DNA of 4,159 nucleotides from Escherichia coli. GTDB lineage: Bacteria; Pseudomonadota; Gammaproteobacteria; Enterobacterales; Enterobacteriaceae. The translations under genes were made by a program, and so were the position numbers. Shown here piece after piece: positions 1 through 4,159 of this stretch. The notes beneath the pieces were generated by a model. It saw only the letters and a program-made list of their open reading frames with translations, did not search any database and was not told where the DNA came from. The stretch is taken from the NCBI RefSeq assembly GCF_003334255.1, contig NZ_QOWU01000110.1. One strand, written 5' to 3'. Numbering within the stretch: position 1 is the first letter of the stretch; every line of letters starts with the position of its first letter.

Positions 1-2061
1 GCGGAACAGATGATCCGGCTGTTTTTCTGGTGTGTTGACGGCAGCAAAAAGCGGTGCCTCACGGGTTTTCAGATGAAACTCCATAAGTTCCGGCGCAGGT
101 GATATGTGGCTGTCTGCATCGTGATTTACGGCAACACCATACCCTGCATACCGTAACCCCTTATCGGTCAGTGCACTGATGACCAGCTGGCTGTTATCGG
201 CTGAGGGAACGGCAAACGCGGGATACAGCGTACCATTAAGCCGGACAACACCGCCCAGAGAGTCATCCACGCCCATGACCAGCAAAAGCTGAAGCTGGCG
301 GGTTTCCCGGTCGACAGAACTCATTACCGGCATCAGCGTCGGTAGCAGACGTCCCTGCGTAAAATCCACCTTCCTTGCTGCCAGTGATGGCATGGCTGGC
401 TGGCGGTCTTCTCCAAGACAGAAAGACTCCGGCCATGTCTTCGGCTGGCGGAGATTGCGGGTATATTGCGGCCATGTCTGGCAAACCTGCGTCAGAAGTT
501 GCTCAAAGGTCGCAGAGGAATAAACACGTTGCAGTGGTGGATGTTGACCGATTTCGCTTCGGTCACAGATATAACCACTCCTGTCACGCATTAAATCAAC
601 ACGCTCAAAGATTCTGGTGCGGTATTTCTCCAGCTCGTTCCCCCAGAGCGTGTATTCTCCGTTCCGGTTGTGAAGCAGAAGGTAACAGGTCATTTCCCCG
701 TTACCAGGCATGGGGGCCTCGCCATACCCCGTAACGACTGCGCTCAGTACCCCTGAATCCATAACGGCATTGTCATTTTTCCTGAGCTGTTCCGCTCGTC
801 GCTCCGCGCGACTACGTTCTGTATCCTCCTGCTCCTTCCGGCGCAATTCCTCTTCACGTTTAAGCAACTGGACTCTGAGAGCTGCAAGGCCGGATGCCCC
901 CCACTGCTGCCACTGTTTTTCAAATGCCGTCTGACTCGCGGGAATGTCCTGTTTCTCCACCTTCCGGTAATGCTGTCGCAATTTTTCCATTTGCTGGCTC
1001 AGCGACTGGATTTTTCCCTGTTCGCTACGGTATTCCGGTGCCGCCCATTGCATCAGGGGAATACGGGAAAAACCGGACGAAAACGGCGATGATTTTTTCA
1101 GGCTGGCAGCATGGCTCATCGCTTCCTTTCGTTCGGTGTTCAGCTCTTCCCAGCGTCTGCGCGTCGCCTGCATATCTGCCATCATCGACATGGCATTACT
1201 GGTGAGTTTCCATGCCGCATTACTGTCCTTCGGCAACGCTTCGATGATGTCACGTAGTGTGTACGAAGTTGCGTTGTCAGGAAGCACGATATTCAGAAGG
1301 TCAGCCACACGGCGGGCAGGCTCTGTCAGCCCGCTGTTTCTGAGTTCGGTACGGGAAATCTGTATTTCCAGGTTAAGTCTGTTAATCAGACGATTCTGTT
1401 CGCCGCGTTCTGTTTCGATACCGCGTGTTTCCATCGCACAGGCAGACTTTCCGAGGTGAATACCAGGCGTTTTCTCAAGCCCCTGTCGCTCGTATGAACG
1501 ATGGTCTATCTCTTCCTGATAACCGGCGTTCGCCAGTGCCCTGTTCGCATGGTCAGCCCATGATGCACGCCACGTCTCGGCATGTGTCCGGTCGTTCCAG
1601 TCCCTGACCTTTCCACCGAATCCAGCAGGTCCGACAGCTCTCGTGGTCAGCATGATGTGCGCATGGGGATTTGTTTTATCCATGTGATGGAACGCCACAT
1701 CAGCAATCATGCCCTGACTGACAAAGTTTTCTCTGACAAAGGCGAGAACGGTTTCCCGTGCGGCATCCTGCGGTAGTTCGCGGGGGATGGCGAGTTCAAT
1801 TTCCCGCGCAAGTTGTGAGTTCTTCCGGCGTTCGGCCTTCTCAACGGCATTCCAGAGTTCGGCACGGTTCGTACACCAGGCAGGGGCTGTCGCGGGAGTC
1901 AGAATCACAGCTTCAGCCACACCGCTTTTGCGGGTGTAGTCGTGAGTCAGTCCGGTACGCTCATCAAGCATCAGTGAACCGGAACGATAGGCAGCAGAAG
2001 CAACGGCGCTGTAGCCGCTGTTTCTGGAGATGATTTTCATGCTGAGATGATAAATCGCCAT
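1..2061 (-). CDS. mobA: MOBQ-family conjugative relaxase MobA, N-terminal 687 codons; the ORF runs off the window start and continues at 4082..3984 on the circle
   Basis: Hand translation of the minus strand from ATG at 2061..2059 gives MAIYHLSMKIISRNSGYSAVASAAYRSGSLMLDERTGLTHDYTRKSGV, with Tyr at residue 25 as in RSF1010 MobA. Further in are a histidine-rich motif HHMDKTNPHAHIMLTTR and WADHANRALANAGYQEEIDHRSYERQGLEKTPGIHLG, which closely parallels the RSF1010 MobA segment WADHANRALERAGHDARIDHRTLEAQGIERLPGVHLG (quoted from memory). I checked every in-frame plus-strand triplet from 1 to 2061 and found no TTA, CTA or TCA, so there is no stop on the minus strand. A second in-frame ATG at 2040 is less likely because the MAIYHLS start is the conserved family N-terminus. 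The SD is weak (AAGG/ACGG 5-14 nt upstream). Confidence 0.9.
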   Translation of the reverse strand, partial: MAIYHLSMKIISRNSGYSAVASAAYRSGSLMLDERTGLTHDYTRKSGVAEAVILTPATAPAWCTNRAELWNAVEKAERRKNSQLAREIELAIPRELPQDAARETVLAFVRENFVSQGMIADVAFHHMDKTNPHAHIMLTTRAVGPAGFGGKVRDWNDRTHAETWRASWADHANRALANAGYQEEIDHRSYERQGLEKTPGIHLGKSACAMETRGIETERGEQNRLINRLNLEIQISRTELRNSGLTEPARRVADLLNIVLPDNATSYTLRDIIEALPKDSNAAWKLTSNAMSMMADMQATRRRWEELNTERKEAMSHAASLKKSSPFSSGFSRIPLMQWAAPEYRSEQGKIQSLSQQMEKLRQHYRKVEKQDIPASQTAFEKQWQQWGASGLAALRVQLLKREEELRRKEQEDTERSRAERRAEQLRKNDNAVMDSGVLSAVVTGYGEAPMPGNGEMTCYLLLHNRNGEYTLWGNELEKYRTRIFERVDLMRDRSGYICDRSEIGQHPPLQRVYSSATFEQLLTQVCQTWPQYTRNLRQPKTWPESFCLGEDRQPAMPSLAARKVDFTQGRLLPTLMPVMSSVDRETRQLQLLLVMGVDDSLGGVVRLNGTLYPAFAVPSADNSQLVISALTDKGLRYAGYGVAVNHDADSHISPAPELMEFHLKTREAPLFAAVNTPEKQPDHLFR

Positions 2062-2104
2062 TTCTGCCGTAATGCCTTTTTGTGGTTTTCTTTCAGCCCC
2101 GCAG

Positions 2105-2152
2105 GGCGCACACAATCGAAACGGAGTGGAGATTGTATAAGTGCGCACTTCG
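2105..2152. other. oriT: Putative oriT: imperfect inverted repeat followed by palindromic nic-like core AAGTGCGCACTT
   Basis: Arms gcgcac-acaatc (2106..2117) and gattgtataagtgcgc (2131..2146) form an inverted repeat with a 4-nt bulge. The 12-bp perfect palindrome aagtgcgcactt (2139..2150) contains AAGTGCG, resembling the RSF1010 nic region GGTAAGTGCG/CCCT. It lies between divergent mobA and mobC, as in RSF1010. Confidence 0.6.
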
Positions 2153-2203
2153 TGATTTTCCGTGCATTATGCCAGCTCAGTTTTTAAACTACCAGTGACG
2201 CGC

Positions 2204-2209
2204 TAAAAT
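2204..2209 (+). promoter_or_regulatory. Candidate -10 hexamer (TAAAAT) for mobC; the -35 is not clear
   Basis: TAAAAT sits 30 nt upstream of the mobC ATG. Only weak -35 candidates (TTTTTA, TTAAAC) are present. Divergent mobA/mobC promoters are expected to overlap oriT by analogy with RSF1010. Confidence 0.3.
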
Positions 2210-2239
2210 GCGATTTTTCATCGCGCACGGAGTTACATC

Positions 2240-2494
2240 ATGAGCAGAACACTCGAACAGAAGATTGCTGATGCTGAGGCCAGATTACAGCGCCTGAAGG
2301 CGAAGAGCAGGAGTCTGGACACAGCGCAGAAGGTCATTGTGGGTGCAGCATTGCTGGCAAAGGTCAGAAAGCCGGAGGAGGTGCAGTTGCGTGCCTGGTT
2401 ACTCCAGTTCCTGAAGGCAGAGGTGACACGACAGGCTGATGTGACGCGCATACTGCCGCTGATTAACGAGCTGGAAGCGCTGCCAGGACAGTGA
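2240..2494 (+). CDS. mobC: Mobilization accessory protein MobC (RSF1010-type), 84 aa
   Basis: ATG at 2240 is preceded by GGAG (2229..2232) with a 7-nt spacer. The product MSRTLEQKIADAEARLQRLKAKSRSLDTAQKVIVGAALLAKV... resembles RSF1010 MobC (...RLAKLEEQRARINAEIQRVRAREQ...RKVLVGAMILAKV..., from memory). It is divergent from mobA across the oriT. Confidence 0.8.
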   Translation: MSRTLEQKIADAEARLQRLKAKSRSLDTAQKVIVGAALLAKVRKPEEVQLRAWLLQFLKAEVTRQADVTRILPLINELEALPGQ

Positions 2495-2734
2495 TTGTAT
2501 CGTCCGCTCGCCGCAGTCCCAGCGACCGAGCGTTAGCGAGCGAGTGGGCGAGGAAGCGGAAGTGAATCCGTCGCCTGATTGAGCACATACGCACGGTTTT
2601 TCGGGAGGTGATATGCGCTGAACCCGCATGAATACTGGATTTCCACAGGGTTGGAGGGGGTGTATTCGGAACTTGCAATTCTGCTTTTTTGCAACGCATT
2701 GTTTTTATTGGTTTTTTGTTTTCAGCACTCCAAG

Positions 2735-2743
2735 TTATCCACA
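2735..2743 (+). promoter_or_regulatory. DnaA box, perfect consensus TTATCCACA
   Basis: Exact 9-mer TTATCCACA, located about 100 bp upstream of the iterons and next to the AT-rich repeats. This is the standard layout of iteron-type oriV. Confidence 0.6.
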
Positions 2744-3728: not shown

Positions 3729-3747
3729 AATCGATTTTAAGGCACCT

Positions 3748-3773
3748 AAAACGCTCCCTGCTGCGTTTTTTTT
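3748..3773 (+). terminator. Putative rho-independent terminator of repA
   Basis: Hairpin with arms aaaacgc (3748..3754) and gcgtttt (3763..3769) around an 8-nt loop, running into a T8 tract (3766..3773), 20 nt after the repA stop. The stem has only 3 GC pairs, so it is weak. Confidence 0.4.
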
Positions 3774-3833
3774 GTGTTAGTAGTGCGAAGGTACTATTGA
3801 AGTGAAAAATTGCGTCAAAATCGCTCTAATGCA

Positions 3834-3862
3834 GCGAAAAAAGAACCCCCATTTTTTGGGGG
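3834..3862 (-). terminator. Putative rho-independent terminator of mobA
   Basis: Hairpin with arms ccccca (3846..3851) and tggggg (3857..3862) around a ttttt loop. On the minus strand it is followed by ttcttttttcgc (complement of 3834..3845). It lies about 120 nt downstream of the mobA stop. Confidence 0.45.
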
Positions 3863-3920
3863 CGGAAAAACAAAACTATGCTTGCATTATGTGTGTGCTT
3901 CTTGCATTCATCCCTGTCGA

Positions 3921-3950
3921 TGAACATCGAAGAACATCGACGAACATAAC
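3921..3950. repeat. Three tandem 10-bp repeats (tGAACATCGA, aGAACATCGA, cGAACATaac) in the mobA 3' untranslated region
   Basis: Read directly; the 10-bp period matches one helical turn. Related GAACA/TGTTC motifs recur at 3954..3959 (atgtta) and 3975..3980 (tgttca). Confidence 0.7.
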
Positions 3951-3983
3951 ACGATGTTAAACAAAACAAAATATTGTTCACAT

Positions 3984-4159
3984 TCACTGTGACCAACCGC
4001 GATCATGTCTCCTCTCGGTGGCGTGTGTTCGTGCATCTTCCTCGCGCCGCCATTCGTCCCAGGTACGATTAAAACCCAGCGAGCGGAACAGATGATCCGG
4101 CTGTTTTTCTGGTGTGTTGACGGCAGCAAAAAGCGGTGCCTCACGGGTTTTCAGATGAA
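3984..4159 (-). CDS. mobA: C-terminal end of the same mobA relaxase ORF (last 32 codons plus TGA stop at 3986..3984); bases 4083-4159 duplicate codons already counted in 1..77
   Basis: The frame is continuous across the circular junction (window base 4083 = base 1). Reading the minus strand from 4082 gives SLGFNRTWDEWRREEDARTHATERRHDRGWSQ then stop. Total ORF is 2160 nt, 719 aa. Confidence 0.8.
   Translation of the reverse strand, partial: HLKTREAPLFAAVNTPEKQPDHLFRSLGFNRTWDEWRREEDARTHATERRHDRGWSQ
4083..4159. repeat. Terminal redundancy: exact copy of window bases 1..77, reflecting circular topology rather than a biological repeat
   Basis: Base-for-base identity of 4083..4159 with 1..77, and the mobA reading frame continues across the junction without a stop. 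Confidence 0.95.

Follow-up and report, generated by a model that had tools for sequence, protein, structure and literature searches.

The closest described relatives of the DNA considered here are the cryptic plasmids of the MOBQ41 group, whose prototype is pIGWZ12 and to which pMG828-2 and pSMS35_4 also belong (Garcillan-Barcia et al. 2019, PMC6856555). Experimental work on pIGWZ12 has covered its origin, its DnaA boxes, and its iterons, which are incompatibility determinants; binding of Rep to the iterons and their role in incompatibility and copy control have been reported for this plasmid (Zaleski 2015, as cited in PMC6856555). MOBQ41 plasmids can be mobilized by MPF_I helper plasmids, which proved the best helpers in experiments (PMC6856555). 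The DNA analyzed here is a stretch of 4159 nucleotides from Escherichia coli (contig NZ_QOWU01000110.1), which we refer to in its entirety as the window. It is a complete cryptic plasmid of the MOBQ41 type and is practically identical to pSE11-6 (NC_011411.1, E. coli SE11; rep_cluster_1778, MOBQ), the two sequences showing 99.9% identity over their full length with 5 differing alignment columns. The 4159 bases correspond to a 4082-bp circle that was read 77 bases beyond its start, so that positions 1-77 and 4083-4159 match exactly, and plasmids of 4082 bp from E. coli and Shigella match the window at 99.9-100% over their full length. Apart from the extra 77 bases, the window differs from pSE11-6 in essentially nothing. 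With pSE11-6 it shares the length of 4082 bp, and with the MOBQ41 group the gene order, a Rep_3 initiator, iterons, a DnaA box, a MOBQ4 relaxase with the published catalytic residues, and a mobC gene that diverges from mobA with oriT between them. The true circle holds three genes, mobA on the minus strand and mobC and repA on the plus strand, and both pMG828-2 and pSMS35_4 are collinear with the window when aligned.

Two other described systems each resemble one half of this plasmid. The ColE2-type colicin plasmids of the MOBQ42 group (ColE9-J and ColE2-P9; represented here by NZ_CP122820.1) have a homologous relaxase domain, oriT, mobC (MobC is 87% identical at the amino acid level), and an element resembling ssiA next to mobC. 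They differ in their replicon, which uses the primase-type ColE2 Rep initiator, has 54% GC, and lacks iterons, and in carrying a colicin operon. The C-terminal half of their MobA has also strongly diverged from that of the window, with 55% amino acid identity overall. Classical iteron theta replicons, such as those of F (RepE) and of Acinetobacter (RepM), share with the window an initiator composed of two winged-helix domains (Rep3_N and Rep3_C) and direct repeats preceding rep, with a DnaA box and an AT-rich stretch alongside. However, the sequence similarity to F RepE and Acinetobacter RepM is only distant, and the window plasmid is far smaller and has no partition genes.

The plasmid, its modules, and the presence of one mobilization (mob) module on two unrelated replicons, the Rep_3/ColE2 dichotomy, are already known (PMC6856555). 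The terms "GC content" and "mosaic" are absent from the text of that paper, and "recombination" occurs in it once, in reference to cer-type multimer resolution. Three elements of the present analysis were not found in the literature examined: the division of the GC contrast into three layers, the exchange of an iteron-repA cassette and of a spacer within the family, and a hybrid that breaks the MOBQ41/MOBQ42 pairing. These additions to the published work are modest. Our analysis indicates that this pSE11-6-like plasmid very probably consists of two modules with separate histories that were joined before the family diversified, that its GC contrast is layered, and that the iterons and repA were swapped at later times.

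Results and Discussion

An earlier note on this DNA had judged by eye that mobA and mobC are GC-richer than repA and the origin. Computation agrees, giving 54.0% GC for positions 1-2500 and 38.8% for positions 2681-3980. The zones in which the note had expected the module junctions are themselves GC-rich (57.8% at 2501-2680 and 54.7% at 3981-4159). A uniform profile, which the note had named as evidence against a mosaic, is not what the calculation gave. Instead, the profile in 300-bp windows drops from 0.557 (2401-2700) to 0.297 (2701-3000, or 29.7% GC) and recovers only after ~3980. The best unconstrained division of the 4082-bp circle into two arcs places positions 2661-3990 at 38.8% GC against 54.5% for the rest. 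The associated gain in log-likelihood is 44.55, compared with a mean of 5.1 (standard deviation 1.6, maximum 10.7) for 200 shuffled sequences. The same GC profile is seen in nine aligned family members, which are the only ones that were aligned to the window in full; counts given below for the whole plasmid collection were taken from BLAST summary bands and are approximate. Because the sequence is small and has a 77-bp duplicated end, one might attribute the contrast to chance heterogeneity or to a windowing artefact. We give this explanation practically no credence, as the observed gain (44.6) exceeds that of every shuffle and the profile is repeated in nine independent family members.

The GC-rich arc extends from position 3984 through the record start to position 2660 and contains mobA, oriT, mobC, and the ssiA-like element at ~54.5% GC. 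On the left, the switch at ~2661 lies ~165 bp beyond the mobC stop codon (2494), after the GC-rich ssiA-like element. On the right, the switch (change point 3990) falls exactly at the mobA stop codon, because mobA runs across the record start and ends at 3984. The earlier gene map of the mob and replication (rep) modules needs one correction, which concerns mobA: the gene encodes 719 amino acids, crosses the record start, and stops at 3984. The length of 719 residues was obtained by circular translation and equals that of the mobQ coding sequence annotated by PGAP in pSE11-6. As a separate observation, open reading frame calls on the raw window or on its self-concatenation yield a wrong C-terminus for MobA, owing to the 77-bp overlap.

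The distribution of the two modules among other plasmids supports the earlier claim that they have separate evolutionary origins, since the mob module occurs on an unrelated ColE2 replicon and relatives of the Rep_3 replicon occur with other transfer genes or with none. The ColE2-type plasmid NZ_CP122820.1 (colicin E2, rep_cluster_2131) is similar to window positions 1349-2475 at 84.7% nucleotide identity. These positions take in the relaxase domain, oriT, and mobC, and the similarity stops where mobC ends; the ssiA-like element and short patches in the 3' half of mobA are similar as well. RepA of the window shows no similarity to the ColE2-type Rep of this plasmid. Relatives of RepA at 60-77% amino acid identity are found in Enterobacter kobei, alongside a distant MobA/MobL protein and TraD; in Yersinia (pYR8), alongside MobC and a coupling protein; and in Proteus, without transfer genes. 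The similarity of these three to the window is confined to positions 2730-2803 and 3026-3722. A third arrangement is seen in pS19_651-d (NZ_CP075856.1). Over 2.68 kb, its mob module is 96.5-97% identical in nucleotide sequence to the ColE2-type (MOBQ42) one just described, but its replicon is of the Rep_3 type, with a RepA 79% identical to that of the window. The shared mob stretch ends at the ends of the mobC and mobQ genes. This plasmid is a natural hybrid, and it breaks the published pairing of MOBQ41 with Rep_3 and of MOBQ42 with ColE2 (PMC6856555). The mob module on ColE2 replicons, the Rep_3 replicons with other partners, and the hybrid together show that the modules assort independently. 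The left junction was measured at 2495-2680 and the right one at 3729-3984, both close to those of the earlier note (2500-2680 and 3870-3990). It may be added that pS19_651-d also carries a gene for an MFS transporter with 33% GC and is one of two such records in the plasmid collection, the other being NZ_CP075708.1.

The earlier note had also reasoned that co-occurrence of both modules in the same relatives across many plasmids would speak against a mosaic. At close range, such co-occurrence is literally what is found, with 413 records holding at least 80% of the plasmid and both modules in the same order; at longer range, it breaks down and the modules separate. The hybrid pS19_651-d, ~22% diverged, is collinear with window positions 1349-3715, a stretch that reaches from the relaxase domain into repA and includes mobC, the ssiA-like element, and the origin. 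This collinearity and the 413 records indicate that the modules were joined before the family diversified and not in the history of this plasmid alone.

The composition contrast was then divided by codon position. The codon-usage calculation that the earlier note had suggested agrees with the GC profile, with GC contents at the first, second, and third codon positions (GC1/GC2/GC3) of 0.615/0.459/0.563 for mobA, 0.643/0.393/0.655 for mobC, and 0.485/0.343/0.446 for repA. Coding GC is 0.423 for repA and 0.546 for mobA, and arithmetic on these values assigns about two thirds of the deficit to codon positions 1 and 2. The combined GC1+2 of repA stays within 0.40-0.44 in all alleles from Escherichia, Klebsiella, Salmonella, Enterobacter, and Yersinia, whereas that of mobA is 0.53-0.55. 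Correspondingly, the amino acid classes FYMINK and GARP make up 0.296 and 0.202 of RepA but 0.195 and 0.299 of MobA. GC3 is equal for repA (0.670) and for its mob partner (0.672) on the E. kobei plasmid, yet their total GC still differs by ~9 points (51% versus 60%). The constancy of GC1+2 across alleles and hosts and the equal GC3 in E. kobei show that this part of the contrast, an AT-biased amino acid composition of RepA, is intrinsic to the protein family and amounts to about two thirds of the coding deficit. A second layer is the origin, which is likely AT-rich for melting and for the binding of DnaA and of RepA to its iterons, by analogy with known iteron origins.

The third layer lies at synonymous sites. 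GC3 of the window's repA differs from that of mobA and mobC combined (p = 0.0008). Sister alleles on the same backbone and in the same host species have GC3 values of 0.51, 0.52, and 0.62; across genera, repA spans 0.27-0.67, with Proteus at the low end, E. kobei at the high end, and the window (0.446) and p4_4.7 (0.62) in between. The difference between the window and p4_4.7 alleles is significant (p = 0.0002). This GC3 deficit of the window's repA allele is the only layer that signals a different residence history. The ColE2 Rep gene on the sister backbone has 54% GC, in line with its mob module, so the contrast is a property of the Rep_3 lineage and not of replication modules generally.

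These layers bear on an explanation in which the AT-richness is purely functional or intrinsic, given that origins must melt and that Lys, Ile, Asn, and Phe are abundant in Rep_3 initiators, and in which the plasmid could be a single unit. The origin at 32% GC with its DnaA box, AT repeats, and iterons, the nearly constant GC1+2 of RepA, and the E. kobei plasmid all fit this explanation, as does the finding that in four of four non-Proteus backbones no part is richer in AT than rep. It leaves the low GC3 of the window allele (0.446) unexplained, both relative to the mob genes (0.563-0.655) and relative to the sister allele at 0.62. Neither does it explain the AT-rich spacer at 3729-3983, which is not part of the origin (38.8% GC), or the presence of the modules on different backbones, and the module distribution refutes the notion of a single unit. 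The functional explanation therefore accounts for part of the contrast but not for the history, and we consider it unlikely as a whole. More generally, before a foreign origin is inferred from the GC contrast of a small plasmid, the contributions of origin function, of protein composition, and of synonymous sites should be separated.

Several points weigh against the interpretation of two modules with separate histories. The union is neither recent nor specific to this plasmid, and the GC contrast is no mark of a recent chimera; taken alone, the contrast overstates the signal of foreign origin. The difference in GC3 between the window and pEC542_4 alleles is not significant by itself (p = 0.21). 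Outside the family, RepA has its closest relatives in Shewanella, Actinobacillus, and Acinetobacter, at only 33-41% identity, and they name no donor. Relatives of MobA at 43-48% identity occur both in GC-rich hosts (Xanthomonas and alphaproteobacteria) and in AT-rich hosts (Acinetobacter). Separately, the hosts of remote homologues were considered as pointers to a donor lineage, and this approach was rejected: those of RepA lean AT-rich (Acinetobacter, Actinobacillus, and Psychrobacter) but include many Klebsiella plasmids at 30% identity, and those of MobA are mixed.

Our studies nevertheless favor two modules with separate histories, and the following course of events is proposed. One module is a MOBQ4 mob module of ~54.5% GC, composed of mobA with its Sog-like C-terminal domain, oriT, mobC, and then the ssiA-like element. 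The other is a Rep_3 iteron theta replicon of ~38.8% GC, composed of the DnaA box, the AT-rich repeats, four iterons, repA, and then the spacer. Recombination would have joined them ahead of the diversification of the family. Afterwards, homologous recombination in conserved flanks would have repeatedly swapped the specificity cassette of iterons and repA between near-identical mob backbones. Such modular differences in composition are ordinary for small plasmids.

Joining by recombination, as the earlier note had proposed, finds support in the discordant synonymous divergence (dS) within the family, which is 0 in mob and 0.74 in repA. Plasmid pEC542_4 (4087 bp) differs from the window at 182 positions within 2849-3606 and at four elsewhere; dS is 0 over the 803 codons of mobA and mobC and 0.74 over the adjacent 230 codons of repA. 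The same dS pattern is obtained with pC282_3. In contrast, pSMS35_4 displays the reverse pattern, with an identical repA (dS = 0) and a dS of 0.058 in mobA. It carries 78 differences in 3745-4056, where identity falls to 63% in 3751-3900 between flanks that are ~100% identical. In p4_4.7, dS is 0.089 in mobA and saturated in repA. The flanks of the exchanged segment are conserved across alleles; the left one comprises the DnaA box and the AT repeats, and the right one the last ~40 codons of repA. The breakpoints of the latest exchange, 2849 and 3606, differ from the module junctions and lie inside the AT-rich arc. In the collection, the relaxase domain is at least 99% identical in 216 records, whereas RepA reaches this level in only 76, and RepA identities fall into discrete classes with no record at 95-99%.

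The same data could be read as faster evolution of the rep region without recombination inside the family, for example through diversifying selection for new incompatibility types. The rep region is indeed the most divergent part in all pairwise comparisons, and iterons and RepA co-vary, as the evolution of specificity would predict. Selection at the protein level, however, cannot lift dS locally from 0 over 803 mob codons to 0.74 in the adjacent repA with sharp boundaries at 2849 and 3606, and it is also at odds with the reverse pattern in pSMS35_4 and with the discrete RepA classes. We therefore regard it as very improbable. A local rise in rate cannot produce these dS patterns, which instead call for two separate exchanges, one of the iteron-repA cassette and one of the spacer. 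Recombination within the family is thus evident, and the exchange probably takes place between co-resident compatible relatives.

We give an even chance to a broader proposal, in which positions 2849-3606 form a discrete, hot-swappable incompatibility cassette that homologous recombination moves between near-identical mob backbones. Its alleles range in GC3 from 0.45 to 0.62 and in their iterons from the AT-rich GGTAATATGATTTAAGGT to the GC-rich GGTGGAGCTTTTGGGGGT, and the same proposal takes in the break of the MOBQ41/MOBQ42 rule by pS19_651-d. Negative frequency-dependent selection may maintain these alleles, because a rare allele avoids incompatibility with resident relatives. IncFII-type replicons are mosaic, and their specificity determinants, the initiator and its binding sites, are swapped as cassettes between homologous backbones. 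Hiraga et al. (1994, as cited in PMC6856555) reportedly described mosaic replicon regions of this kind in ColE2-related replicons. Our comparison with both systems is provisional; the cassette of the window differs from theirs in consisting of iterons and a Rep_3 gene, with flanks formed by the DnaA box, the AT repeats, and the 3' end of repA. In this E. coli plasmid family, which is very common, recombination of the rep cassette will make trees of concatenated backbone genes misleading, a concern for plasmid epidemiology and for replicon typing.

The Klebsiella pneumoniae plasmid pC282_3 (CP067825.1) has a backbone that is 99.3% identical to the window outside the rep cassette. It carries a Tn4401 of ~10 kb with blaKPC-3 (positions 842-10835), inserted in the spacer between repA and mobA (window ~3842-3862). 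No family member carried resistance genes according to the 2019 description (PMC6856555). This cryptic backbone has already acquired Tn4401 with blaKPC-3 in Klebsiella.

Features of the Replication and Mobilization Regions

Table 1. Coordinates of the features in the window (4159 nucleotides)
Feature	Positions	Strand	Description
mobA (MOBQ4 relaxase), codons 1 to ~687	1..2061	-	Coding sequence starts at 2061 (MAIYHLS...) and continues past the record start; GC 54.4%
Sog-like C-terminal domain of MobA (amino acids 439-698)	1..747 + 4050-4082	-	Homology to the C-terminal domain of the IncI/K Sog primase
Divergent mobA-mobC intergenic region, 178 bp, holding oriT	2062..2239		GC 47%; oriT from PMC6856555
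mobC (relaxase accessory protein, 84 amino acids)	2240..2494	+	PGAP annotation in pSE11-6; GC3 = 0.655
Putative ssiA (n'-pas)-like element, GC-rich	2504..2594		Closes the GC-rich arc; resembles the ssiA region of ColE1/pMB1
AT-rich arc (origin, repA, spacer)	2661..3983		38.8% GC
Origin region	2661-3026		32% GC; DnaA box, AT repeats, iterons
Perfect DnaA box TTATCCACA	2735..2743	+	Only plasmid site with at most one mismatch to the consensus
Three AT-rich direct repeats of 13-14 bp, two with GATC	2757..2801	+	Conserved across RepA alleles
Four iterons (GGTAATATGATTTAAGGT), 18 bp, start-to-start 21-22 bp	2846..2928	+	Third copy degenerate
Exchanged iteron-repA cassette	2849..3606		182 of 186 columns differing from pEC542_4
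repA (Rep_3 initiator, 233 amino acids)	3027..3728	+	Pfam Rep3_N E = 1e-35, Rep3_C E = 1e-19; GC 42.3%, GC3 = 0.446
AT-rich spacer, repA stop to mobA stop, 255 bp	3729..3983		38.8% GC; second hypervariable or swapped patch
mobA 3' end, last 32 codons and stop (3984-3986)	3984..4082	-	GC 57.6%; change point 3990
Terminal redundancy	4083..4159		Exact copy of 1-77; best database matches are all 4082 bp

The features identified in the window are listed in Table 1. The replicon at 2661-3983 is a standard iteron theta replicon. Its DnaA box is conserved in the sister alleles as well as in the relatives from E. kobei and Yersinia, and the adjacent AT-rich repeats, by analogy with iteron origins, are the probable DNA-unwinding element. 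The sequence of the iterons co-varies with the RepA allele. With the NCBIfam models, RepA scores 165 bits for RepM (cut-off 250) and 78 bits for RepE (cut-off 342), both under the curated cut-offs. Two hairpins followed by T-runs (at ~3749-3772 and at ~3846-3862) lie in the spacer downstream of repA, as do three copies of the 10-bp direct repeat TCGAnGAACA (3917-3946). A separate observation concerns the third iteron (2889-2906), whose sequence in the window and in pSE11-6 (GGTGGAGGAATTTAAGGT) is degenerate. In pSMS35_4, which has an identical repA, this copy is perfect, and the 6-base difference is confined to it.

MobA matches the Pfam family MobA_MobL at residues 18-213 (E = 1e-70) and the NCBIfam MobQ model at residues 1-45. 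The residues Y25, E87, E89, H125, H133, and H135, which have been named as catalytic for MOBQ4 relaxases (PMC6856555), are all present at those positions (6/6). The C-terminal domain of MobA shows 45% amino acid identity over 290 residues to Sog (an LPD7-domain protein; L016, 4384-8148), with the last ~110 residues ~80% identical by eye, and nucleotides 13-252 are ~80% identical to the sog (LPD7) genes of very many IncI/K-type plasmids. The likeness of MobA to SogL has been reported as "low homology" (PMC6856555). A Sog-like domain on MobA agrees with the published superiority of MPF_I plasmids as helpers and suggests that this domain may be the part recognized by the transfer machinery of the helper.

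The published description locates oriT between the divergently transcribed mob genes (PMC6856555). In the window, this intergenic region (2062-2239) is 94-95% identical to that of the MOBQ42-type mob module of pS19_651-d. MobC has no family match in Pfam or NCBIfam. The GC-rich element at 2504-2594 matches many small Col-type plasmids; it adjoins mobC in the ColE2-type plasmid NZ_CP122820.1 (1038-1092) and is inverted in pS19_651-d (3670-3757). It is identical at 48 of 57 positions to what we take to be the segment downstream of ori in pMB1/pUC, with the ssiA coordinates presumed. Folding of the element as DNA gave z = -0.95 and -1.32 relative to shuffled sequences, which does not support stable single-strand hairpins. 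In pMB1 vectors, ssiA lies in the segment downstream of ori (PMC3167613). The ssiA label for 2504-2594 is thus putative and derives from sequence similarity.

A site for XerCD that might mark a module junction was considered and rejected, as the cer-like core pattern is unmatched with up to 3 mismatches. An Rfam scan of the whole window (E <= 1) returned only a chance microRNA match, and the junctions thus hold no known RNA element. The last 74 bp of the GC-rich arc (2587-2660) are 97% identical to a segment of a 168-kb E. coli plasmid (NZ_OR095750.1, 115735-115808), a match that may be the remnant of a cointegrate or of an insertion.

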